Part shown: piece after piece, positions 44,359 through 63,644 of the stretch
Layout: every line of letters starts with the position of its first letter
Position numbering within the stretch: position 1 is the first letter of the stretch
Source of the DNA: Escherichia coli
GTDB lineage: Bacteria; Pseudomonadota; Gammaproteobacteria; Enterobacterales; Enterobacteriaceae
Reading direction: 5' to 3' (one strand)
Assembly: GCA_032372955.1 (NCBI GenBank)
Contig: GCA_032372955.1_4725.1
Length of the DNA: 64,000 nt
Translations under genes and position numbers: made by a program
The notes under the pieces: model-generated
Told to the model about the DNA's origin: nothing
Seen by the model: only the letters and a program-made list of their open reading frames with translations
Databases searched by the model: none

Positions 44359-44709
44359 ATGAAAACGTTAACTAAATTGTTTGTTGCTGTTGCTATTCTG
44401 TTCGGTAGTGTTGTCGGTTCAGCACAGGCTGGATTGCTGGATAGCCCAGAGGTTTACGATAAAGCAAAAGCAATCTACATGGCCATGGAGAGCATGACGC
44501 CAGCAGACCTTGAAGAATGTGGTGTTGATTTCGGTACCCCGAAAGAACTTCCCGGAGTTAAGAACCCTACCAACCCCAGCGTGAAATTGAAAGTGGCAGA
44601 CTTCGAAGTTTTCAACCCCTCTTTCAAGACCTACGCGCGGGTTCGTATACTTGTTGATCCAGCAACCGGTGTTGTTCAGGGCGGTGAATATCTCTATCTG
44701 GGTAAATAA
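44359..44709 (+). CDS. secreted protein (signal peptide)
   Basis: MKTLTKLFVAVAILFGSVVGSAQA signal-peptide-like N-terminus. Confidence 0.5.
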   Translation: MKTLTKLFVAVAILFGSVVGSAQAGLLDSPEVYDKAKAIYMAMESMTPADLEECGVDFGTPKELPGVKNPTNPSVKLKVADFEVFNPSFKTYARVRILVDPATGVVQGGEYLYLGK

Positions 44710-44727
44710 TTGAGTAAGGACAATACG

Positions 44728-44937
44728 ATGATTCCAGCTAACCCTCTTTTAAGTATCAATCCTTTCCACAGCAATCCTGGTGTCGATCAGATACAACCTG
44801 CTTTTTTATCACAGTTCCGGGCTGATTATGATGGCGACACCGTAACTGGAAACAGTATCCGTCTGTTGAATCGCCGCAAGAAAGGTCCAGGTAAAGGCAA
44901 AGTAAAAATCATTCAACGTTTAATCTCTTATGTATAA
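44728..44937 (+). CDS. small basic protein with RADYDGD and KKGPGKGK motifs
   Basis: ATG 44728 after AAGGA RBS (track TTG 44710); QIQPAFLSQFRADYDGDTV resembles the RNAP beta-prime NADFDGD loop; followed by stem-loop 44955..44980. Confidence 0.4.
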   Translation: MIPANPLLSINPFHSNPGVDQIQPAFLSQFRADYDGDTVTGNSIRLLNRRKKGPGKGKVKIIQRLISYV

Positions 44938-44954
44938 ACCAACACTGTTTGATA

Positions 44955-44980
44955 AGTGCCGCCTACATATGGGCGGCACT
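44955..44980 (+). terminator. GC-rich stem-loop
   Basis: AGTGCCGCC(44955-44963)/GGCGGCACT(44972-44980); TCTTTATGTTG about 10 nt downstream. Confidence 0.45.
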
Positions 44981-45110
44981 GCTCTGGTCTTTATGTTGTA
45001 CAACAGTTGTCAAGGAGGTATGTGGGTACGTGCGTTGTTACTCGCATTCGCGTTAGTGATGTTTCTAAAATTTGAATCATCGCTTTATCAGAAAAAGTAA
45101 GAAGGAGTTC

Positions 45111-45305
45111 ATGATGGGACATATGCTACTACGGGGATTAACGGGGATGGTTCTAGCATGGATGGTCATTGGGTTTTGTGGGATGATGTTCTTCATGGTC
45201 GATGAACCTGCTGCCCGAATTAACGTAGGGTTATGGTTCGTCTTCTTGATGATAGCGGTATTCGTTATCGTTACCTTGTTAAGGAATGTAGGAAAGCGCA
45301 AATAA
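45111..45305 (+). CDS. small two-TM membrane protein (holin-like candidate)
   Basis: AAGGAG RBS; two hydrophobic helices, basic C-terminus NVGKRK. Confidence 0.45.
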   Translation: MMGHMLLRGLTGMVLAWMVIGFCGMMFFMVDEPAARINVGLWFVFLMIAVFVIVTLLRNVGKRK

Positions 45306-45321
45306 ACGAACGGGAAAAGCC

Positions 45322-45693
45322 ATGGGTTTAAAGACATACGCAAAAATCTATTTCATTTTCACTTTTATAATGATTGGGATTTCTGCAGCGAATATCGATT
45401 TTGAAACAACGACGGAACGCGTTTATTACGTTATCCGAACCATCGTTTGTGTTATAGGGCAGCTTCCCCTTTTGTATATTTGTACATGGTCGACGCGTAA
45501 CATCAGACGGTTTGTCGTGTATGGGTTCGCGTACGTTCTTTTTATGCTTGTTATGTGGCAGGTCGATGCTCGACTGAGCGATATCGCAAATATCATCGCA
45601 ACGGCGATTCTCAGTGCAACAAGCTGGTGTTTATTTTTACCGATGTGTCGACGTGTCGAGGATGAAGGTTATGGGTATCATGGAGAATCTTAA
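45322..45693 (+). CDS. multi-pass membrane protein
   Basis: Three to four hydrophobic segments. Confidence 0.45.
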   Translation: MGLKTYAKIYFIFTFIMIGISAANIDFETTTERVYYVIRTIVCVIGQLPLLYICTWSTRNIRRFVVYGFAYVLFMLVMWQVDARLSDIANIIATAILSATSWCLFLPMCRRVEDEGYGYHGES

Positions 45694-45982
45694 GTTAACT
45701 AATCGCATCCTTGTCGATAGAGAAGTTGTTTTACGCGAGATACGAAGCGTGATGGCGATCTTTAATCTGGATCATCGATCTGCCATTATGTCTATTCTCT
45801 TGAATAAAACAACCTTTAATATCCGGGAGATACGTCGTATTCACAACGGTATGGAACGACGGCATAAATTAAGCGACGAACTCGTACATTGCGAGTTTAT
45901 ACCGCATCAAGTCTATCGACGTATTTATCGTGATCCATGCCTTCGGGATAAATACAACCTATGGCTCGACGGTAGAGGTTAA
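45671..45982 (+). CDS. hypothetical protein
   Basis: Start uncertain (45662/45671/45680); overlaps upstream gene. Confidence 0.35.
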   Translation: MGIMENLKLTNRILVDREVVLREIRSVMAIFNLDHRSAIMSILLNKTTFNIREIRRIHNGMERRHKLSDELVHCEFIPHQVYRRIYRDPCLRDKYNLWLDGRG

Positions 45983-46234
45983 CATCTTTGAGAAACTATA
46001 TGAATTCAAACGATGTACACCTTTACCGCGTTGGATGCGGGAAATGGGTTCTGTTATCCAACGTTATGTTTATTGCCAAACCAGAGGAGACCGTAATTTC
46101 AGTACCGTTTATTTCTGTCGTGGATGTCGGGCAAACATCTGACGCTAACCTGCTGCCCGCTGAATAGAACAACCCGATGACGGGATGCGTTATCAAGACG
46201 CCAGTGGACAGCACCTTATCGTGAGGTTATTAAG

Positions 46235-46732
46235 ATGCAAGGTATTTTACACACGTTGATTTTAGGGCTTGTTATGTTGCTTATCACACCGTTCAGTCAA
46301 GCATCGGTGAACGCAGGACCTAGAATCGATTGCCGGAAAGAGATCGTCGCATGCGCTGTGTATATGGAAGCCAGAGGCGAATCTGTAAAAGGGCAATACT
46401 CCGTGGCGTTTTTAATACATAATCGATCTATGGACTACCGATTCCCTACGAACGTCAAAGACGTCGTACTGCAAAGAGGTCAATTCCCCTGGACAAAACA
46501 AAGGCGTATTGTCATACGCGATCACGCTGCTTTTGAGCGAGCAAGAGCAATAGCACGAGAGGTCGCAACATTACGTTACACTGACATTGCGGCTTACCAT
46601 AAAGCCGACCCAACACGAGGAGCCGTATTCTTTAACGCGAAACATCTTCGCCCTAAACATTTCAGAAAACATGCTACCAATATCACCGTGGTAGACAGCC
46701 ACATTTTCTTTGGTAAACGACGTCACACGTAA
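46235..46732 (+). CDS. SleB/CwlJ-like cell-wall hydrolase (endolysin candidate) with N-terminal signal or anchor
   Basis: CAVYMEARGES..GQYSVAFLIHNR..FP..VKDVVLQRGQFPW matches the Hydrolase_2 pattern; hydrophobic N-terminus. Confidence 0.65.
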   Translation: MQGILHTLILGLVMLLITPFSQASVNAGPRIDCRKEIVACAVYMEARGESVKGQYSVAFLIHNRSMDYRFPTNVKDVVLQRGQFPWTKQRRIVIRDHAAFERARAIAREVATLRYTDIAAYHKADPTRGAVFFNAKHLRPKHFRKHATNITVVDSHIFFGKRRHT

Positions 46733-49192: not shown

Positions 49193-50023
49193 ATGTATCC
49201 TGAAGCATCGTGGCAGGAAGAAGCGTTATCTAAAATAAACGCTTATCTCCAGCATCCGTTGTCTCTGTCAGACATTACGTTAACGCCAGCCTGGTATGGT
49301 GCATCAGGTCGGTTACGCCTTTCTATAGCCCCCACACCACAATCGGTTTACTACGTCGAAGACCCCGTACAGGTTTATCTTCAACGTCGCGATATTAATA
49401 AGCTCTTTATCAAACACCAACCTTTTATTGTCGTTGCTGATATGACGACGACAGCAGACTGCTTAACGCAGCTGTTTAAGAAGTATGGGTTGAAGATCGA
49501 TTTAACGATCTTTGATTCTTCAGCGTTAGCGTTACCGGTTAAATTTGAAAGCGGTGAGAAAACCATATCTGTTCCCGTTCTTTCTGACGCATCAGCATCG
49601 TGGTACGGTACGTTTCAATTCCTCGCACGAAAAGATGTAAGTGCCGATATTAGCGAACTGATTACGGTACGAGAACCGCTAACCTCGTATTATCCAGAAG
49701 ATAGTAAACAAGGGGATTTCCACACATTCAGTACATACGGCATCAAGCTAAATATACCGCCGCAAGATGCGATACGTTCGATGTCGGTTGGAGATACTCC
49801 CGAAGGATACAACGCATTCCGTTTAGCCTCATCGCTGATTTCAATGAGTTATACCTCAGCTTGGGAACTCATCACAACAGCCAGTGTCGTTTATAATGGA
49901 AAAGTTGCCGATGCGAACGATTTAGATGTTCCAATACTTCCGTCGTTCGGAAGCTCTGTTCTGGTGTTAAAACCTCATTCCGATAGCGGCGTCAGCAGCA
50001 AACTTTATTTTAGTTACGATTAA
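49193..50023 (+). CDS. hypothetical protein (possible virion/tail component by position)
   Basis: 276 codons, GAGGT RBS; first gene after terminator 49076..49134. Confidence 0.5.
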   Translation: MYPEASWQEEALSKINAYLQHPLSLSDITLTPAWYGASGRLRLSIAPTPQSVYYVEDPVQVYLQRRDINKLFIKHQPFIVVADMTTTADCLTQLFKKYGLKIDLTIFDSSALALPVKFESGEKTISVPVLSDASASWYGTFQFLARKDVSADISELITVREPLTSYYPEDSKQGDFHTFSTYGIKLNIPPQDAIRSMSVGDTPEGYNAFRLASSLISMSYTSAWELITTASVVYNGKVADANDLDVPILPSFGSSVLVLKPHSDSGVSSKLYFSYD

Positions 50024-53734: not shown

Positions 53735-53838
53735 CGGAATTTTATGCGGTCGTCTGGACTGTTTACGCTTACCTCGAATCGCACTTTGGTTTCGAGGAGT
53801 TATATATCTTAATTTGATTGTTGGAGGAGGGTGCGCTT

Positions 53839-54366
53839 ATGCGTTCACTTTACCCGCCATGGAAAGACGAACTGATTACGTTGATAAACAGACGTAACAG
53901 TAGCGTGTTCAGCAGCTCCGATCTTACATTAACCTTGGATGGGAGTTCTGGTGCTAACAGGGCAAAAGTGATCGTCACAGCAAATGAAGGAACAAAGTGG
54001 TGTGGTGAAAGTTTTATCGTTTACGCCCGACGCGATATCGCGAAGGCATTTTTAGGAATACCGGTAAAAATCGTTTTAGAGTCCGTTGAGACAACAACTA
54101 TACATGCGATTATTCGGGCGATTTCAGATCAATACGGGTTCGTCTTTGACCCCGACGTTGATTTTGATGCGGTTACCCTTGCCACTGTTATTGATTTTCG
54201 TGACGATATATCCAAAAAGATTTCTATCCCCATCGCGAATACCTCCATGGTTTGGCGTGGTCGATTGGATCTTACTGTGACAAACCAACACGATGTATCT
54301 CCGGCTCATCTTTACGCCGGTGCCACAACCGTCATTGGTGATATCATCACTATTTATCCAGGATAA
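53839..54366 (+). CDS. short protein carrying the shared receptor-binding-protein N-terminal anchor domain
   Basis: ATG 53839 after GGAGGAGGG RBS; WKDELITLIN..ARRDIAKAFLGIPVKIVLE..DQYGFVFDPDVDF paralogous to N-termini of 10243..11694 and 60057..62669. Confidence 0.5.
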   Translation: MRSLYPPWKDELITLINRRNSSVFSSSDLTLTLDGSSGANRAKVIVTANEGTKWCGESFIVYARRDIAKAFLGIPVKIVLESVETTTIHAIIRAISDQYGFVFDPDVDFDAVTLATVIDFRDDISKKISIPIANTSMVWRGRLDLTVTNQHDVSPAHLYAGATTVIGDIITIYPG

Positions 54367-54372
54367 AACACC

Positions 54373-57300
54373 ATGAGTACAGCATATATAACGGTAGTTA
54401 CCGATAAAGGAGCAGAACGTATCACCGCTGCGTTACTTCCCGACGGTGAGAAACTAAAAATCACACACTTTGCCGTTGGTGATGGTAACGGCTCGATCCC
54501 AACCCCGAACGCCAGCCAAACAGCGCTTGTTCACGAAGTTTATCGTGGGGAAGTTTCTAATATCCACGCGGATGGCGATAGCACAACCAGGATTATCGTT
54601 GAGGGTATTATTCCTGCTGGTCAAGGTGGGTTCTGGGTACGTGAGATCGGTCTGTACGATGACCAAGGTGTTCTGATTGCCGTCTGCAGTGCACCAGAAA
54701 GATATAAGCCTACGCCTACCGAAGGCGCAACCAGCGTTCTTAACTGCCAGGTGCATGTCGTTGTTAGTAATACGAGTGCGATACAGCTTAAGGTGTTGGA
54801 TAACGCATTTCTTCCTGATGCAACGACTGCTACACGCGGTTTAACTATTCTAAGTAATGAAACCGATAGCGACGACGAGACAAAATCGGCCACGCCTAAA
54901 GCTGTTAATGCCGTTCGTAAACAATTGCCCGTTGTTGTAACAGATATTCGTGACCGTACCAGCGGACGAGTGGCTCTACCCGGTATGTTCGGTTATGGGG
55001 CAATACTTACCGACGTTAAGAATTTTAGCGGCACCGCTGGAGTAACAGAATTCTTAACATGGGTTAAAGCCGCAACCCCGGGGATTTACCAGGTATCACA
55101 GTCAGCTGGAGACAATAAAATAATTCCAGGAGTGACGTTTACCGGTCTTATTGAAATCAATTACATCAGCTCGTCACGGAACAGTTCTGGCCCACAAAAC
55201 GAAGAGAAGGGAATATTCTTTTTAGGCGTTAACGGTGACTTCTGGTATAACCGTTATCATGCCAGCAGTGGTGGTTCTCTCATCGGGTGGGAAAACCTGA
55301 AAGTCGATGTCGACGCACTTAAACGTCTCATCGCGCTCAAGGCAGATCTTAATAGCCCTGTGTTCACCGGTATCCCGGCAGCGCCCACCGCAGCAGTTAA
55401 CAATAGCAGTCGACAGATTGCCAACACGGAATTTGTGATGCGCGCGATCGCAGCGCTGATCGACTCGTCACCAGCGACGCTAAATACGCTTAATAAGCTG
55501 GCTCGAGCTATAGGAAGTGATCCTAATTTCGCAACGACGGTAACAAATGCGTTAGCTGGGAAGCAGCCCCTTAACGCATTACTGACCGCCTTTTCAGGTT
55601 TAGCAACATCAGCAAACAAATTCCCGTATTTTACCGATACGAATAAGGTTGATTTAGCGACGATCACACCGACAGCACGGACGTTACTACAGCAATCTAG
55701 CATTGAAAGCATGCAAGCATTGTTGCGGTTATCGGCAACACTATTCCAGCGTTTTCGAGGACAGCTCCCCACCGACGCAAATCTGAATACCTACGGTCCG
55801 GTTGAAGCGTCTGTGGGTATTTGGTCTAAACCAGTATCAACGAACGCGGACGTCGCCCACAATTTCCCTGAAGCAAATGCCGCAGGTTACATTGAAGTGC
55901 TCCCAACTGGGCAATTCGGTGGAACGCAACGTTACACTGTATGTACAGGCAATATTTACGTACGTAGTTTAACGGCAGCATGGAACGGCCAGGATGGTCC
56001 ATGGGATGATTGGCTGAAAGTGGGTAATAATGCAGCCACAGCAGCTAAACTTGCTACCGCAAGAACGATAGGTGGCGTCAGCTTCGATGGTTCTGCTAAC
56101 ATCGATCTCCCCGGTGTTAACAAAGCTGGCACCCAGAATACCAGCGGTAACGCTGCTAGTGCAACCAAGCTACAAACTGCACGTAGAATCGGTGGCGTTG
56201 CCTTTGACGGAACAGCGGATATTGCATTACCGGGTGTGAATGCGACAGGTAACCAAAACACCACGGGGAATGCGGCAACCGCCACGAAATTGAAAACCGC
56301 TGTTACGATCGGCGGTGTGAGTTTCGATGGTTCGGCCAGCATCAGTCTACCGGGTGTTAACGCCGCGGGAAACCAAGACACCAGCGGAAACGCAGGAAGC
56401 GCAACCAAAATTCAGACCGCGAGAACCATCGGGGGTGTTTCTTTTGATGGTACTGCGAACATTGATTTACCAGGCGTAAATAAAGCGGGCACGCAAAATA
56501 CCAGCGGCAACGCGGCTACAGCGACAAAGCTACAGACCGCCCGTAAAATCGGTGGTGTTGCGTTCGATGGTACGGCCGATATCGCATTACCAGGCGTTAA
56601 TGCGGTTGGCAATCAGAATACGACGGGTAACGCCGCGACAGCCACGAAATTGAAAACACCGATCACGATCGGCGGAGTTTCTTTTGATGGCTCTGCTAGC
56701 ATTAACCTACCAGGTGTCAACGCGGCAGGTAATCAAAGCACTTCCGGAAACGCTGGTTCAGCAACAAAACTTCAGACGGCGAGAACCATAGGGGGCGTGT
56801 CCTTTGATGGTACTGCCAACATTGATTTACCGGGTGTGAACAAAGCAGGTAATCAGAGTACCTCTGGTAATGCGGCTACTGCCACGAAACTCCAAACAGC
56901 ACGGAAGATTAATGGGGTCGCCTTTGACGGTACAACTGATATTAGCTTTAGCATTAACGTGCTCGCTTCCAAGGGACGGGTCACCGCTTTAGCTAATGCG
57001 ACCCAGGGCAGCAGTACGGGTATTCAGATGTATGAAGCGTACAATAACGGATACCCTACAGCCTACGGTAACATTGTTCATCTTAAAGGTGCTTCATCGG
57101 TTGGTGAAGGTGAAATCCTCATTGGGTGGTCGGGTACCTCGGGCGCGCACGCTCCAGCTTATTTACGTTCGCGTCGGGATGCAACCGATGCGAAATGGTC
57201 GGAATGGGCGCAGATCTACACATCTAAGGATAGTATCCCGGGTGTGAATACAACAGGTAACCAAAACACCACGGGGAATGCGGCAACCGCCACGAGGTTG

Positions 57301-58251
57301 CAAACGGCAAGGACGATTGGTGGTGTCTCATTTAACGGGACGGCAAATATCAACCTGCCTGGGGTAAACACCACCGGTAACCAAGACACGACCGGTAATG
57401 CTGCCACGGCGACAAAACTGAAGACAGCCCGCACCATTGGTGGGGTGTCTTTCGACGGTAGTGCGAACATCAATCTGCCTGGTGTTAACGCCGCGGGAAA
57501 CCAGAATACATCAGGAAACGCAGCAACGGCAACGAAGTTGCAGACCGCGCGCACGATTAACGGTAAACCTTTCGATGGTACAGCTAATATCACGTTAGCA
57601 GCTAAAGATCTTGGTTTAGCCGATTCTAGTGGATATGTCGGGCGTTTACTGAATATGCGGGTTTTCACATCGTCAGGGACGTACACCCCAACACAAGGAA
57701 CAAAACGGATTAGAGTAACGATAACCGGTGGTGGCGGTGGCGGTGGCGGTTGTCAGGCTTATTCCAACAGCGAAACGTTTTTTGGCGCTGGAGGAGGAGC
57801 TGGCGGAACAGTAATTTCGGTTATAACGGTAGCAGCTGCTAGTTATTCTGTTATAATTGGTTCTGGTGGTTCCGGTGGCTCTGGGGCGACGAATGGGAAC
57901 GGGGGTGGAGATAGTAAATTTGCATCCCTGCTAACTGCTCCCGGCGGGCAAGGCGCAGGAAAAACAACTGTCACAAACACTGGCGGTGGCTATGGGGGCG
58001 CACCTACTACCGGGGATATACGCATTCCGGGTGGAGACGGTAGCGATGGACAAGCCGGTACTCTTGCCGCCGGTGGATGTGGGGGTGCGTCATATTGGGG
58101 CGGTGGCGGTCGCGCTGGTGTTGGCACCGCCCATAACGGCCTCGCGCCTGGTTCGGGTGGTGGTGGTGCTTACGATAACTCTTACTCAGGAACCGCTAAG
58201 CCTGGTGGGCGTGGCGCTAATGGGATTTGCATCATCGAGGAGTTTATGTAA
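54373..58251 (+). CDS. long tail fibre protein (P2 gpH-like N-terminus, tandem 37-aa fibre repeats, Gly-rich C-terminal tip)
   Basis: N-terminus [42 protein letters not shown] resembles phage tail-collar fibre domain; 13 repeats of [40 protein letters not shown]; C-terminus rich in GG/GGxGG. Confidence 0.85.
56028..57600 (+). repeat. in-frame tandem repeats (111 nt / 37 aa) inside the tail-fibre gene; boundaries approximate
   Basis: Nine consecutive units then four more after a non-repeat spacer; protein near-identical, DNA mostly diverged at synonymous sites, but an identical ~40-nt stretch (CAGGTAACCAAAACACCACGGGGAATGCGGCAACCGCCACGA) recurs near 56247 and 57252. Confidence 0.8.
57727..57750 (+). 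repeat. (GGT/GGC)8 glycine-codon microsatellite in the fibre tip
   Basis: GGTGGTGGCGGTGGCGGTGGCGGT encodes an 8-Gly run. Confidence 0.6.
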
Positions 58252-58667
58252 TGAGTACATTATACGCTGTTATTGAAAATGGAGTGGTAGTAAACACGAT
58301 TGTTTACGACGGTGAAGCAGAGCTCGATATATTCGACAATCAGCAGTTGGTTCATATCGACGATAAGGAGGCTGTGTCACCTGGAATAGGTTGGTCATAC
58401 TCAAATGGTGAGTTTACCGCACCTCCGGAACCCGAGCGGCAACACGAAGATCTCGTCGCCGAGGCAGAACAGATAAAACAATCTTTGATTGATTCTGCGC
58501 TGGCTTCCATCGATCTTATTCAGTTAAAATTACGGGCTGGGCGAAAACTGACTCCGGAAGAAACGACCCGACTTAATGCTGTTTTGGATTACACTGATGC
58601 GGTGACTGCTGTCGATACCGATGCTGCACCAAATATCGATTGGCCGGAATTTCCTACAACTGTGTAA
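58251..58667 (+). CDS. tail fibre assembly chaperone (Tfa-like)
   Basis: ATG overlaps fibre stop (TAATG); [21 protein letters not shown] ... DAAPNIDWPEFP typical of lambda/P2-type Tfa. Confidence 0.75.
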   Translation: MSTLYAVIENGVVVNTIVYDGEAELDIFDNQQLVHIDDKEAVSPGIGWSYSNGEFTAPPEPERQHEDLVAEAEQIKQSLIDSALASIDLIQLKLRAGRKLTPEETTRLNAVLDYTDAVTAVDTDAAPNIDWPEFPTTV

Positions 58668-58708
58668 TTACTATGGAAATCACTCCCGTTAACACATGAG
58701 GAAATCCG

Positions 58709-59215
58709 ATGACAAAGAAACTTTGCGCGATCGTTCTTGGTATGCTGATGGTGCTTTCTCTGGGTGGGTGTGCTACGCTGGAAGGTTTACCGAACCTGGA
58801 TAAAGACCTGACGCAACTGGTGGGGTTAAAACCTGTTGAGAAGAACAGCAATCTCGCTGTGTATTCTTGCTGGGGTGCAACCCAGGAATTCGAACATTGG
58901 AAACCGAAGTTCTCAACCACTGAAATCTGGAACGATAAGGTTCTGGTTGTGGATGAAGGTAGTCAATTTACCGTTGACTCTCCGGTAACCGTTTTCGAGT
59001 CCACCCAGTTGTATACCACGGTGAAAGACTACGTTGACCTGGGGTTCAATACCGCAACCAGCGAACGCTTCTACCGCATGAACAAACCAACATTGTCTTA
59101 CGCAAGTTCAACCCTGAACTCGAACGGCGATGGTGTTGGGATGGTCTTCTTCAATTGTTCTACCGACCGTGCATTGATCGCTGATCCCAACTCCATTGAG
59201 GTTATCAGTAAGTAA
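58709..59215 (+). CDS. lipoprotein (signal peptide with lipobox-like LGGC)
   Basis: MTKKLCAIVLGMLMVLSLGGC N-terminus. Confidence 0.55.
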   Translation: MTKKLCAIVLGMLMVLSLGGCATLEGLPNLDKDLTQLVGLKPVEKNSNLAVYSCWGATQEFEHWKPKFSTTEIWNDKVLVVDEGSQFTVDSPVTVFESTQLYTTVKDYVDLGFNTATSERFYRMNKPTLSYASSTLNSNGDGVGMVFFNCSTDRALIADPNSIEVISK

Positions 59216-59223
59216 TTAAGTAC

Positions 59224-59263
59224 GCTCCTCCAACCCGTCAGGGAAGGAGGAGCTGCTATGGCG
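59224..59263 (+). terminator. stem-loop with 14-nt loop AACCCGTCAGGGAA plus GCTATGGCG
   Basis: GCTCCTCC(59224-59231)/GGAGGAGC(59246-59253). Confidence 0.5.
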
Positions 59264-59392
59264 TCATCGTATGAAATTTCCTTTTTGAGAATAGAAACGA
59301 GGTAGAAAATGGCGATAGCGCGAACTATAGGGTTCACGTCCAGCACACATCCGATATCCGCCACTTCAACCACCAACGTATAGGACAAGACC

Positions 59393-60034
59393 ATGGCTAT
59401 AAGTACAGATAAAACACCGAATAGCGGCGCACGTTTACAAGATGGTAACTCATGGCACGATAACACCGACGCTTACTACAACACCATGATCTGCTGGACG
59501 TTCGACGTTCGTGATATTGCGACACAAGTCCAGAACAATTATCCTGGTACCAAATACCTCGAATCGATAAACGGCTATGTGAACACAAAAGAAAAGAAAC
59601 ACGGACAAGGTACCAACCCCGTTATCATTCCGAATATTCCACCGCAGCAATTTACCTCACTTAAGAACATGAGTCCGTCGCTATGGTGGAACGCGGGCGG
59701 ACGCGGTAGCAACGGCAATGTGTATTGCGACTCGCGTAGTCACACTTGGCATCCATGGAACGCGAATGCGAACTGGTCAGCCGTCCCTGTGACCGAATTG
59801 TTATCGTCGCCTTTACCCGTTGCGTTTGTCTTTAAGGCGGTTTCTGGTAAACATAACGTTGCGGTATGGAATTGCCATCTCCACAATTTAACTTTCTATT
59901 ACATCCGTCCCGGATTCCCTGGTTGGTGTGGTAACATCATGAGCCAGAATGGTAGAGCTGTTCCAGGCTGGGTATCACAACTCGTCAGCGGGAACTGGTT
60001 AACTTCCTTCGTGGGCGGTAAGCAGTACATCTAA
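59393..60034 (+). CDS. hypothetical Trp-rich protein
   Basis: 213 codons. Confidence 0.5.
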   Translation: MAISTDKTPNSGARLQDGNSWHDNTDAYYNTMICWTFDVRDIATQVQNNYPGTKYLESINGYVNTKEKKHGQGTNPVIIPNIPPQQFTSLKNMSPSLWWNAGGRGSNGNVYCDSRSHTWHPWNANANWSAVPVTELLSSPLPVAFVFKAVSGKHNVAVWNCHLHNLTFYYIRPGFPGWCGNIMSQNGRAVPGWVSQLVSGNWLTSFVGGKQYI

Positions 60035-60056: not shown

Positions 60057-62669
60057 ATGAAGTTACATGAAACCGCGCAAAATGAAATACTAAGATTGGT
60101 CAACGAGAAAAACGGACTTTCTCTTACTTCCGACGATGTTGTATTTGCACGTGTTCTATCGGCACCCGAAACAACCTCCATTCTTTTTAAAGGGAAAGAT
60201 GGAAGCCGGTATTACAAATCCGTATTCGTCTCGTTGGTTAAACGAGACCTCGCTAAAGCGTTCTTGGGAATACCTGTCAAGATTATCATTGAAGAAGATA
60301 CCCAGTTACGTGAAATCATGCAAGAGGTCGCTGACCGTTACGGTATTGCCTTTGATCTCGCAACCGACTTCCTACAAGGACAATTAAATAAAACGACAAC
60401 AACGTCTACCACAGGCCGCCAATCCGTTAAAGTAACAGCGGATGAGGGAAGTTTGGTTTGGGCGGGCGATCTTGTACTAACCGTTGAAAACCGTAAATAC
60501 AACCTGTTGTCGCTTATTCAGCATCTTGACCTTACCGGACTGAAATATCTTAACGACGATAGAACGAAGGGTGACGTCGAGTTATTGATTGCTGGCATCG
60601 ACCCCGTTCGCTTTGTAGGTCTCGCAAACTTACAACAGGGTGAGGTCATTTACCCCGCCTTAGCCCACCGCATCGCGGATGCGATTCATCGAGAAAACGC
60701 GCCGGAAGATATCGGTTTACCCGCGCTACGTGGGTTATTTGAAAACGCAACAGTCACGAAGGTCGAACGTACGGACCTCGGCGATGCGTACAGTGTTCCG
60801 ATTAATACGAACGACCATTATCAAGGTACTGCCGTATTCCATCTCAATAATGGCAACCCTAAAGGCGCACCAACCTACCGCTACGCAAAAGGTACGCGTA
60901 ACCTCTGGCAACCGATGTATTGGATTATCAACGGTCAGTCAACAGAGAACTTCGCGGTTGTCAGTGAAGACATGGTACTTAATGCGTATATGCGATGCCA
61001 TACCGCTAACGGGTTGGTCGGGATAGAATGGCGGACAACGGATACGCTGGATCACGGCTGTATTGCGTATGATCCCATGACGTCGTTGCTTGGTTTGATC
61101 TTTAAAGCGAAGATCACGTTTACTGGCGATCAGCGTAACTTTGCAGATACCGAACACCCGCCGGTTTTAACCGTTGTACACAAAGACGATAGCCGTCAGT
61201 ATATCTCATTAACCCGATACGCGACAGATGTCTCTGAAGACGGTAGAAGCGCAATCGTAACGATCGATTTCAACGACGCAATGGCGGGGTTCTATGCTGA
61301 CGAACCTATCGAACTCGAATCGGTAACGTCGTTGATGTTCAGCATGAGTTCTCGACATTATAAGGAAGATGCGACTGAAACGACCTATCTGGAAACACCG
61401 ATCGACCTCGGCTTAACCATCGAGATTCTTCCTATCGATGGGGTGTATCAGGAAATGACGGTTAGTCGCCACCACTGTACGCCACACGAACTTCGTGCGA
61501 TAACCGCTTATGATGACCATTACAACATCACGCCGGAGCGTGTATTTGAGAACCTGGTGTATGCGGGATATCAAGATGAATTAGTGCATTATGTTGGGAT
61601 GTCGCATTTCTACGATACTGTCTGGACACCAAGTGCGGGTAAGTTACTGGTGAACACCACGGATGTATTAAATCCGCCCTGTATTGCGTGGCATGAAGCG
61701 TTCGCCGCATATGCTGCAAAACACCATTTCTCTGTCACCATCAGTTTAAGTTACGAATTGATGAGTACAGCATGCCCGTTCGAGTGGGCGCAGCAGGATT
61801 GGGAAGGAAACATCGCAGCAACCGGATATACGCCACCGTCTTGGTTGTTGTCTCCATGCAACCAACAGGCGATGGCGTGGTTAGGGGATGTGTTAACCGC
61901 GTTTGCCGATATCATCTACCCTCATGTCCAGGACATTTGTGTGCAGGTAGGTGAACCTTGGTGGTGGATCAACACGGCGAACAACAAACCGTGTATCTAC
62001 GATTACCAAACCAAACTGGCTTTCAATAACCGATATCCCAACAAATATGCCGCAGACATCGGTGATATCAACAACCCATTATCCGGCGGTGACTACGATC
62101 TCTACGTTGAGTTTTGTAACGACCAGTTAGGATACAGTTGCTGGAATCTCGTTAACCGGGTAAAATCGAAATACACGCAGATCAAAACCGGTATTCTTCC
62201 GTTCTTACCGACGATCATGTCGAATGCGTTCACGGAGAAACTCAATCTTCCCAAAGCATGGTATAATCCAGAGAAATTCGATCGGTTCTATTCGGAGTGT
62301 TACGACTGGATTATTGAGACGCATGTCACCAAGGCTGAGCAAGCGATCACCATTCCGCGAGATACGCTTGGTTTCCCGGTTAGTCAGATCCACTATTACC
62401 TGGGATTTGTTCCTGGTGAAGATCTCGCACCGCTTTATGGATTCGATGTTAAAACGCCGTATAAACGCGAACTCTGGAAACGTATCATGGGTAACCACGC
62501 AAATAACCTGGATATGTTCGAAGGACTCACTCAGTACATCTGGGCGTATCCGCAGTTCATCGGTGATAGCATCATTCCAGGCCAGGTTCCCGAAGAGTTT
62601 TATTTCCTCGGAAAACGTTATGATATCATTCGTACGGACATTCCTTTTGATTTTACGCCGGACGCTTAA
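60057..62669 (+). CDS. putative receptor-binding protein / tailspike with shared N-terminal anchor domain
   Basis: GAGG RBS; N-terminus NEILRLVNEKNGLSLT..VKRDLAKAFLGIPVKIIIE..DRYGIAFDLATDF paralogous to 10243..11694 and 53839..54366; large unrelated C-terminal domain. Confidence 0.55.
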   Translation: MKLHETAQNEILRLVNEKNGLSLTSDDVVFARVLSAPETTSILFKGKDGSRYYKSVFVSLVKRDLAKAFLGIPVKIIIEEDTQLREIMQEVADRYGIAFDLATDFLQGQLNKTTTTSTTGRQSVKVTADEGSLVWAGDLVLTVENRKYNLLSLIQHLDLTGLKYLNDDRTKGDVELLIAGIDPVRFVGLANLQQGEVIYPALAHRIADAIHRENAPEDIGLPALRGLFENATVTKVERTDLGDAYSVPINTNDHYQGTAVFHLNNGNPKGAPTYRYAKGTRNLWQPMYWIINGQSTENFAVVSEDMVLNAYMRCHTANGLVGIEWRTTDTLDHGCIAYDPMTSLLGLIFKAKITFTGDQRNFADTEHPPVLTVVHKDDSRQYISLTRYATDVSEDGRSAIVTIDFNDAMAGFYADEPIELESVTSLMFSMSSRHYKEDATETTYLETPIDLGLTIEILPIDGVYQEMTVSRHHCTPHELRAITAYDDHYNITPERVFENLVYAGYQDELVHYVGMSHFYDTVWTPSAGKLLVNTTDVLNPPCIAWHEAFAAYAAKHHFSVTISLSYELMSTACPFEWAQQDWEGNIAATGYTPPSWLLSPCNQQAMAWLGDVLTAFADIIYPHVQDICVQVGEPWWWINTANNKPCIYDYQTKLAFNNRYPNKYAADIGDINNPLSGGDYDLYVEFCNDQLGYSCWNLVNRVKSKYTQIKTGILPFLPTIMSNAFTEKLNLPKAWYNPEKFDRFYSECYDWIIETHVTKAEQAITIPRDTLGFPVSQIHYYLGFVPGEDLAPLYGFDVKTPYKRELWKRIMGNHANNLDMFEGLTQYIWAYPQFIGDSIIPGQVPEEFYFLGKRYDIIRTDIPFDFTPDA

Positions 62670-62690: not shown

Positions 62691-63260
62691 ATGAAAGTAA
62701 AAGACCTTTACAAAATAAAACCGCAAACGATGGGTACTGCGAGCTTGGTTCTCGTTGATGGGCGCTCCCTGGTTGATGCGCTTAATAGTTACGACAACAT
62801 CAACATTCCTGTCGGTCAACGATTAAGCATACAGCGGTTAAAAAACTATCTCGATGATGCTGGATTAGCTCCTGACACACGAAAAGAAATCGAAGAATTG
62901 GAAATCGATGAAACGAGTTCCGTTGAAGGTAATCTTCCTGATCTTACCGCTATTCACGATAAGGCTAATCAACCCGCTGTCCAAAACTTCGTTGTGGTCA
63001 TTGCAACAATCTCTCTCTTTTTGGTGACGTTAGTATACACCGGTATCTGGGCATGGCTTGCGTTCGTCGCGCAAACCAAACCGAGCATTAACCATCTGTT
63101 CGTTCTGGCTGCTTGCTGGACGATGGTGATCTGGAAATCACAAGGCATCATCAGTCGCGAACGTCGTGATTTGATGTCGGTTATCGTCGGCGATGCGCCA
63201 AGTAAAAATCGCTTTTGGGATAATATCGAAAGCCTAGGTAAAGTGATGAAGAATCGTTGA
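62691..63260 (+). CDS. membrane protein
   Basis: GGAGGTGG RBS; two or three hydrophobic helices in the C-terminal half. Confidence 0.5.
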   Translation: MKVKDLYKIKPQTMGTASLVLVDGRSLVDALNSYDNINIPVGQRLSIQRLKNYLDDAGLAPDTRKEIEELEIDETSSVEGNLPDLTAIHDKANQPAVQNFVVVIATISLFLVTLVYTGIWAWLAFVAQTKPSINHLFVLAACWTMVIWKSQGIISRERRDLMSVIVGDAPSKNRFWDNIESLGKVMKNR

Positions 63261-63269
63261 GGGTAACAC

Positions 63270-63644
63270 ATGGCTGATACCACCCCACCATGGATCGATC
63301 TGAATGTGCATCTTGTCTGGCGTTACGCTGGACGTTACACCCACGCGCACGATTTTAACGACGGTAAACTTAGTTATTACAGCATCGCTTTTACCGAAGC
63401 ACAAATACGTGCGTGGTTCGCTCAACTGAATTATCCCAATTTGATTGCAAAGAAAAGCTATTCAATGTCAAGAACACGATTAACTGTGACATTGGAGCTG
63501 TTCAATAAATCAACGTGGGTTGACGCGTACCGGCTTCGTGAGGTTATTGATAGGCAGTTCCGTAAGCATCGTCATGAAGTGCCATCAATGCCGAAGAAAG
63601 ATCCTATTGTTCCACCGGAAGATGCCATCTGGAACGAACATTAA
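63270..63644 (+). CDS. hypothetical protein
   Basis: 124 codons. Confidence 0.5.
   Translation: MADTTPPWIDLNVHLVWRYAGRYTHAHDFNDGKLSYYSIAFTEAQIRAWFAQLNYPNLIAKKSYSMSRTRLTVTLELFNKSTWVDAYRLREVIDRQFRKHRHEVPSMPKKDPIVPPEDAIWNEH

Follow-up and report, generated by a model that had tools for sequence, protein, structure and literature searches.

We analysed a 64-kb stretch of DNA (64,000 nucleotides, one strand; hereafter the window, whose numbering is used throughout) from Escherichia coli assembly GCA_032372955.1 and focused on an open reading frame (ORF) on its + strand that encodes a predicted lipoprotein (Table 1). The 3 kb around this ORF share 95.4% nucleotide identity with Escherichia phage vB_EcoM_Goslar (Goslar), a 237-kb nucleus-forming jumbo phage; window position x corresponds approximately to Goslar position 157138 - x on the reverse strand. 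The product is 98.8% identical in amino acid sequence to Goslar gp088, annotated as a 'hypothetical protein', and an identical protein has the accession WP_257258957.1 ('hypothetical protein [Escherichia coli]') and comes from a contig of 237,848 bp. A preliminary description of this DNA had placed a lipoprotein gene right after fibre and chaperone genes, and both the ORF and its neighbors lie exactly there. The chaperone is, as far as shown, context for the lipoprotein gene rather than a functional partner. The gene encodes a conserved, predicted exported lipoprotein, and the evidence favors neither a receptor blocker like Llp of T5 nor a spanin of the usual kind.

Table 1. Features of the lipoprotein locus (window coordinates).
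Feature	Coordinates	Strand	Remarks
Tail fibre	54373..58251	+	Homologue of Goslar gp090, annotated as similar to P1 gpS
Tail-fibre assembly chaperone	58251..58667	+	Pfam Caudo_TAP, E=5e-20; PHROG 188
TATGGAAA motif	58672..58679	+	~30 nt 5' of the start codon; possible middle/late-type promoter element (tentative)
Shine-Dalgarno GAGGAA	58698..58703	+	5 nt ahead of ATG, read from the sequence
Lipoprotein precursor gene	58709..59215	+	ATG start, 168 aa + stop; homologue of Goslar gp088, SPN3US_0159 and Kwan gp173; PHROG 9559
Type II (lipoprotein) signal peptide, residues 1-20	58709..58768	+	Predicted by PROSITE-style rule and homologue alignment; AlphaFold helix at residues 3-17
Lipobox L18-G19-G20-C21	58760..58771	+	Cys21 predicted to be the acylated first mature residue; +2 = Ala
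Flexible tether, residues 22-45	58772..58843	+	pLDDT (predicted local distance difference test) 45-59; length varies between clades
All-β domain modelled as a barrel, residues ~46-152	58844..59164	+	Cys54 (58868..58870), Cys150 (59156..59158)
GC-rich hairpin, then TATGGCG	59219..59257	+	Directly 3' of the stop codon; RNAfold -26.2 kcal/mol

The N-terminus of the product reads MTKKLCAIVLGMLMVLSLGG-C and comprises a basic n-region, a 14-residue hydrophobic h-region, and the lipobox L-G-G-C, laid out as MTKK, LCAIVLGMLMVLS, and LGG-C; the Cys21 codon occupies 58769..58771. The features that we took to define a lipoprotein (basic n-region, hydrophobic h-region, lipobox [LVI][ASTVI][GAS]C, Cys at position 15-35) are all present, and the signal matches a PROSITE PS51257-style rule. 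The same rule matches 11 other entries, representing 8 distinct ORFs, among the 1783 start-specific ORFs of the window. These are mostly short ORFs lacking a continuous hydrophobic region, and one is an internal start within the fibre gene that ends in the Gly run of the fibre; only the lipoprotein ORF has a canonical signal peptide. All 30 aligned homologues, at identities down to 25%, keep the lipobox Cys, so that the signal cannot be put down to chance. Position -3 is L in 28 and position -1 is G in 29 of these proteins, position -2 is A, S, G, or T, and none has Asp at +2. The lipoprotein reading of the product, and with it the LGGC lipobox noted in the preliminary description, is strongly supported at the sequence level. 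In E. coli, the +2 rule of the Lol pathway sends lipoproteins with a residue other than Asp at this position to the outer membrane, and we infer that the product is lipidated and sorted there.

Two protein searches returned 37 relatives, 30 of which were aligned (25-86% identity). The product matches PHROG 9559 ('unknown function') at E=3e-21, with residues 1-153 aligned to positions 1-148 of the 166-position profile. tblastn detected the family in 55 phage records, which comprise Goslar, SPN3US-like phages of Salmonella, Escherichia, and Proteus, and Erwinia phages including Kwan, Wellington, Asesino, Machina, Huxley, ChrisDB, Caitlin, and phiEaH2; the family is confined to Goslar-, SPN3US- and Erwinia-type jumbo phages. 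Pfam, NCBIfam, and PADLOC hold no family for the protein beyond signal-peptide-only matches such as entericidin A and LPAM_1, a sequence search of the PDB gave no relative, and a search of complete E. coli genomes gave no match. An exhaustive hidden Markov model (HMM) search of 1.84 billion representative proteins yielded 17 clusters, the strong ones all belonging to the same jumbo-phage family; a few weak multi-stretch matches look spurious, and no bacterial relative was recognised in this library, which carries no annotation. The UniRef entries named 'Lipoprotein' (Erwinia phages Kwan, Huxley, and Asesino), SPN3US_0159, and Goslar gp088 are true homologues with 25-98% identity and a like architecture, and the name 'lipoprotein' on homologue entries appears to be a signal-based label only. 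We rejected the 'DUF2846' label of one GenBank homologue, which Pfam reproduces for 0/30 members.

Mature family proteins are 132-175 residues long (148 in the window protein), acidic (pI 4.2-6.8), and proline-poor (4-9%). Every mature protein in the 30-sequence alignment has exactly three Cys; besides the lipobox residue, these are Cys54 and Cys150, both invariant in the aligned homologues. The C-terminal tail, CSTDRAxIADPxSVxVI, is conserved. The ratio of nonsynonymous to synonymous substitution rates (dN/dS) relative to relatives is 0.05-0.18, and the gene thus evolves under purifying selection. At 90% clustering, the window protein falls in a group of 258 that derive from E. coli, Salmonella, and Shigella assemblies, consistent with the report that Goslar-like phages in sequenced isolates mostly represent persistent infections (10.1101/2024.12.31.630880). 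Near-identical relatives are deposited as 'hypothetical protein' of these three bacteria on contigs of 236-245 kb, which are whole Goslar-like phage genomes hidden inside bacterial assemblies.

The preliminary description had proposed structure prediction as a check. An AlphaFold2 run on the 30-sequence alignment (mean pLDDT 77.5) modelled a helix for the signal, a linker at low confidence (residues 19-45), and an all-β domain (residues ~46-152, block pLDDT 83-94); this folded, proline-poor barrel does not resemble known o-spanins. Cys54 lies in the first and Cys150 in the last strand of the modelled domain, where a disulfide probably closes the barrel. The closest folds are small 8-stranded barrels, among them the surface or periplasmic binding proteins NHBA, TbpB, fHbp, and PliC-like PhiA, and also integral membrane barrels such as OmpW. 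A structure search of BFVD returned the family itself, weak matches to uncharacterised lipoproteins of the unrelated phages DIBBI, Possum, and Joad, and a weak match to an RB49 'lysozyme inhibitor LprI-like' protein.

MliC/PliC/PhiA lysozyme inhibitors and the barrel domains of NHBA, fHbp, and TbpB are alike in fold class and barrel size, and several of them are lipoproteins. The product could accordingly be a periplasmic inhibitor of the MliC/PliC or Spackle kind, acting on the tail lysin of a superinfecting phage or on the phage's own secreted endolysin, or a sensor for lysis inhibition or persistent infection. The RB49 match and the acidity of the mature proteins are consistent with an inhibitor, as is the signal peptide that the Goslar-type endolysin (46235..46732) carries; a sensor would suit the lysis-inhibition-like delay reported for phiKZ (PMC12894885) and the reported persistent infection by Goslar- and Seoul-like phages (10.1101/2024.12.31.630880). 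However, 0/30 members match Pfam MliC or another inhibitor family, the product does not match the MliC/PliC family profile and motifs, and endolysins differ among the lineages that share the lipoprotein, being SleB-type with a signal peptide in the window and GH108 without one in Kwan. Inhibition of the phage's own endolysin was rejected as a conserved role because of this difference in endolysin type, and we regard the inhibitor or sensor reading as a whole as improbable.

We compared the locus with three diverged Goslar-like contigs (L013, L014, and L015). L015 encodes a lipoprotein 86% identical to that of the window, beside a fibre that is mostly without counterpart beyond ~residue 362 of the window fibre, and a DUF4376 protein replaces the Caudo_TAP chaperone. 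In L013 the lipoprotein (48% identical) is encoded directly 3' of a gp092-like tail protein, with no fibre, chaperone, gp087, or gp086 nearby; in L014 it (49% identical) is encoded between two different DUF7941 fibre-like genes, and the chaperone is absent. The divergence of the lipoprotein in L015 and L013 (86% and 48%) matches that of the endolysin (88% and 47%) and also tracks that of gp085 and gp084. These comparisons indicate that the gene is vertically inherited and holds a fixed place in a module of coming-and-going fibre cassettes, and that it is no fibre passenger. Its location in the host-recognition module is common to all three lineages: it lies between fibre cassettes in Goslar-like phages, follows an array of fibre-like virion genes in Kwan, and adjoins the genes for virion protein gp160 and a DUF4376 protein in SPN3US. 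Both SPN3US and Kwan carry it as a single gene oriented against its neighbors, 1-2 kb from a GH108 endolysin gene. In the SPN3US virion mass-spectrometry table, rows 152-155 are followed by 160 and 167; there is no row for gp159, the SPN3US member of the family, whereas the neighboring gp160 is abundant. A virion component was rejected, as the product carries an export signal and gp159 has no row in that table.

To our knowledge, two kinds of phage outer-membrane lipoproteins are well understood so far, namely o-spanins and the small Llp/Cor exclusion proteins of siphophages. The preliminary description drew an analogy to T5 Llp, and part of it stands. Like Llp and the Cor lipoproteins of the T1/phi80 type, the family consists of predicted phage outer-membrane lipoproteins encoded beside receptor-binding genes, with a likely intramolecular Cys pair, and presumably acts in the infected cell and not in the virion. 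A receptor-specific exclusion factor would inactivate the outer-membrane receptor of the adjacent tail fibre, for which the position immediately 3' of the fibre and chaperone genes and the probable intramolecular disulfide, as found in Llp (PMC9586334), both speak. Much else speaks against the analogy. The family has neither a sequence nor a detectable fold relationship to Llp or Cor; it is a β-barrel on a tether, stems from a nucleus-forming jumbo myophage, and seems not to be co-inherited with the neighboring fibre. Mature Llp is only ~60 residues long, compared with ~148 here. That the gene is kept while flanking fibres and chaperones are exchanged or lost, with no matching change in the lipoprotein and with a divergence like that of the endolysin, argues against a factor directed at the receptor of the neighboring fibre, as does conservation across phages of Escherichia, Salmonella, Erwinia, and Proteus. 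Furthermore, the adjacent fibre is annotated as P1 gpS-like, and fibres of this class bind the lipopolysaccharide (LPS) core, not a protein, a site that a periplasmic lipoprotein would probably not block easily. Taken with the lack of an early-promoter motif, these points make receptor-specific exclusion of the Llp/Cor type quite unlikely.

Upstream of the lipoprotein gene, Goslar-like loci carry TATGG[GA]AA, and SPN3US and Kwan loci carry TATGAC; one or the other element is found ahead of the gene's homologues in L013, L014, SPN3US, and Kwan-type loci. Motif classes were derived from intergenic k-mer counts, and a motif of 4-8 nt is no proof of a promoter. TATATTAC, with 10 sites in Goslar, all on one strand and one of them 5' of the chimallin gene, looks like an early promoter, in agreement with that of phiKZ. 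The motif associated with chimallin in SPN3US, where it again lies 5' of the gene, is GATATTATC. TTATGC-type TATG motifs in Goslar often stand right after hairpins. A sigma-70 promoter scan found nothing, and the sigma-70 model is not appropriate for these phages. The hairpin directly 3' of the stop codon together with TATGGCG is probably a terminator followed by punctuation for the next promoter; a consensus terminator scanner did not flag it because it has no T-run. Hairpins of the same kind, at -19 to -27 kcal/mol, also stand after the gene in L013, L014, SPN3US, and Kwan, and hairpins flanking lipoprotein genes range from -14 to -27 kcal/mol. The TATG-type motifs and flanking hairpins suggest that the gene is expressed in the middle or late phase as a separately punctuated unit. 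Genome-wide in Goslar, and at 59219..59270 in the window, a GC-rich hairpin followed by T(T)ATG(C/G) recurs after many genes.

The preliminary description named a spanin component as an alternative. Like the o-spanins lambda Rz1 and phiKZ gp141.1 (PMC12894885), the product has an outer-membrane lipoprotein signal with a residue other than Asp at +2. The phiKZ lysis cassette encodes the i-spanin gp141, the o-spanin gp141.1 (120 codons, lipobox LNGC), the holin gp142 with a large cytoplasmic domain, the regulator gp143, and the endolysin gp144, and an o-spanin gene is described as invariably the next gene 3' of the i-spanin gene (PMC12894885). In the window, no i-spanin gene is adjacent to, overlaps, or embeds the lipoprotein gene; the chaperone and the product of the downstream gene have no transmembrane domain. 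The lipoprotein itself has no C-terminal transmembrane domain and no hydrophobic segment after the signal peptide, and a u-spanin of the T1 gp11 type was rejected for lack of that domain. The periplasmic part of o-spanins is a short, usually proline-rich or else helical segment with little predicted structure, those of PhiEaH1, PCH45, and phiKZ being Pro-rich, whereas the lipoprotein is a folded barrel (pLDDT 83-94) with 4.1% Pro. The canonical form of the alternative therefore falls, and what is left of it concerns the Goslar lineage.

A genome-wide lipobox scan, also run with a relaxed lipobox, picked up its positive controls, namely the phiKZ, PhiEaH1, and PCH45 o-spanins. In SPN3US it detected two lipoproteins, the family member and an o-spanin candidate at 180497..180976. 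The latter directly follows a gene for a transmembrane, coiled-coil-like protein (heptads judged by eye) at 180017..180487 on the + strand of NC_027402; by architecture, the two would form a textbook separated spanin pair. Kwan (KX397369) has an overlapping spanin-like pair, gp229/gp230 (182277..182777 and 182774..183244), and the unannotated candidate two-component spanins of SPN3US and Kwan correspond to PHROGs 8719 and 8165, 'unknown function'. tblastn detected the SPN3US-type o-spanin candidate in 75 phage records that cover every family-carrying lineage except Goslar. Profile comparison of the lipoprotein family with this candidate found nothing beyond the signal peptide. Since SPN3US and Kwan carry a separate spanin-like pair besides the family member, the role of the family in these phages is not that of a canonical o-spanin.

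The missing o-spanin of Goslar-like phages is the most interesting thread. The 237-kb genome of Goslar yields a single credible lipoprotein, gp088, even with the relaxed lipobox. Goslar gp189 (NC_048170 234664..235215, - strand) is i-spanin-like, with a transmembrane domain and a long coiled-coil-like region (by eye), and lies at the site syntenic to the SPN3US/Kwan pair, between the gp188 virion gene and RNase H. Its N-terminal amphipathic motif, LKALPWLFPFLRELF, resembles by eye the Kwan gp229 counterpart, LLKLLPILQLLMEVF; profile comparison of gp189 with the SPN3US i-spanin candidate found nothing. No lipoprotein gene lies beside or inside gp189, which makes it an orphan i-spanin-like gene, and the same arrangement recurs in Goslar-like contigs whose gp189 is 58-66% identical (L029 4001..4522; L031 2031..2543). 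PhiEaH1 and PCH45 have embedded spanin pairs beside a homologue of Goslar gp030; at this site, too, Goslar lacks such a pair.

An i-spanin-like gene, no recognisable o-spanin, and a single lipoprotein keep a lysis role alive for the Goslar lineage. The protein might be a component of outer-membrane disruption in Goslar-like phages, either as an unlinked non-canonical o-spanin working with gp189 or as a spanin substitute, and an accessory lysis protein in SPN3US-like phages. This would agree with the proximity of the gene to the GH108 endolysin in SPN3US and Kwan and with an upstream motif that is TATG-type and not early-type. It would also agree with the gene order in L013, where the very next gene 3' of the lipoprotein gene encodes a membrane protein that resembles phiKZ gp142 (PMC12894885) in layout, its cytoplasmic N-domain being large. 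However, gp189 (234.7 kb) and gp088 (98 kb) are ~137 kb apart, which is at odds with the adjacency described for spanin genes; the folded barrel is unlike known o-spanins; other lineages hold both an o-spanin-like protein and the family; and the membrane protein, a gp085 homologue, lacks HH-level similarity to gp142. Within the Goslar clade, conservation does not extend to the distal (periplasmic C-terminal) half of gp189, whereas the C-terminal tail of the lipoprotein is conserved, a pattern unexpected for a conserved complex. We consider a lysis factor unlikely. A more specific version holds that Goslar-like phages lost a canonical o-spanin, kept the i-spanin-like protein, and use the unlinked barrel lipoprotein as an outer-membrane lysis or lysis-control element, be it as a spanin partner of non-canonical type or as a sensor in the periplasm that holds lysis back and thereby adds to the persistent infections reported for Goslar- and Seoul-like phages. 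We think this version decidedly unlikely; if true, it would be an exception to the rule that an o-spanin gene comes right after its i-spanin gene, and the protein would represent a class of its own among outer-membrane lysis proteins.

We favor a reading, with a probability of about 0.4, in which the lipoprotein is an envelope factor of the infected cell whose tethered barrel binds a host component conserved across Enterobacterales, leading to exclusion or to protection of progeny. The protein would be made in the infected cell as a non-virion product, exported by Sec, lipidated at Cys21 by Lgt, Lsp, and Lnt, and carried by Lol to the outer membrane, into whose inner leaflet it would insert. 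A tether of ~25 residues would then hold the acidic β-barrel domain in the periplasm, with the Cys54-Cys150 disulfide as a probable staple. Unlike the strain-specific receptor of the neighboring fibre, the envelope component bound by the barrel would be conserved across Enterobacterales, and binding would alter the surface or envelope of the infected cell to the benefit of the phage. The logic would resemble that of Llp or Cor, carried out by an unrelated, larger protein. In favor of this reading we count the lipoprotein signal kept in 30/30 homologues, purifying selection, the confident all-β model with its barrel-like closest folds, the missing gp159 row, the location in the host-recognition module, the separate punctuation of the gene, and the separate spanin-like pairs of SPN3US and Kwan. 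The host target and the benefit are guesses on our part: further infection may be excluded, or fewer progeny may be lost on infected cells and debris.

Several observations weigh against this proposal. The status of gp088 as the sole credible Goslar lipoprotein and the orphan state of gp189 leave room for a lysis role. The lipoprotein has no sequence homology to Llp or Cor and no PADLOC match, and it does not co-vary with the adjacent fibres, being 86% identical in L015 next to a different fibre and chaperone. Likewise, dN between the L013 and L014 lipoproteins is 0.066, and their immediate upstream genes are unrelated except for a DUF7941-type N-terminal adaptor. The early motifs TATATTAC (Goslar) and GATATTATC (SPN3US) are absent 5' of the lipoprotein genes, whereas T5 llp is an early gene (PMC9586334). 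The probability not assigned to the readings above goes to some other function.

Whichever reading applies, the family fits neither o-spanins nor Llp/Cor, yet it is conserved and strongly constrained across the enteric clade of nucleus-forming jumbo phages. Spanins, holins, lipoproteins, and superinfection all go unmentioned in a 2026 review of jumbo-phage biology (PMC13282480), and these topics thus look largely unexplored for the clade. Identification of the target could reveal a new remodelling of the infected-cell surface or could instead explain how Goslar-like phages breach the outer membrane with no recognisable o-spanin. The lipoprotein may, in addition, have a part in the way these phages are carried persistently, without lysis, by clinical and food isolates.

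Other genes of the window and of related phages may bear on lysis. The gp085 homologue (at 62691..63260 and 63270..63644 in the window) has a cytoplasmic N-domain of ~95 residues, a hydrophobic transmembrane region at ~98-150, probably of two segments, and a charged tail, a layout like that of phiKZ holin gp142; HHalign found no homology between the two (probability 0.3%). In PhiEaH1 and PCH45, the gp085 homologues come just after homologues of phiKZ gp139/gp140 and a thymidylate kinase gene (tmk, annotated in PhiEaH1 only). A possible lysis cluster lies at 44359..46732, ~12 kb upstream of the lipoprotein gene. It comprises genes for a secreted 116-aa protein (signal ...SAQA/G), a 123-aa protein with four transmembrane segments (45322..45693), and the SleB/Hydrolase_2-type endolysin, whose own N-terminal sequence is a signal or a signal-arrest-release (SAR) sequence. 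A second Goslar endolysin, gp024, is GH108-type and encoded elsewhere. The SPN3US neighbor gp158 (locus L002 8522..9037, - strand) has the look, by eye, of an M15-type peptidase and is reported among the non-head proteins of the virion (PMC5105663). It may act on the cell wall as an enzyme associated with the tail.

The 1292-aa fibre contains many near-identical ~45-aa repeats and a glycine-rich end domain with a run of eight Gly. Downstream of the lipoprotein gene, 59393..60034 encodes a 213-aa protein rich in Trp, Asn, and Gly and with no family match, whose L015 counterpart is only 38% identical and which L013 and L014 lack. The gene belongs to the fibre module and is either fast-evolving or accessory there. 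A DUF7941-type N-terminal adaptor domain occurs in the tail- or fibre-like proteins encoded at 49193..50023, 53818..54366, and 60057..62669. In related contigs this adaptor carries varied C-terminal domains (LRR_5, DUF285, Phage_fiber_2), which looks like a cassette system for exchanging receptor-binding domains.

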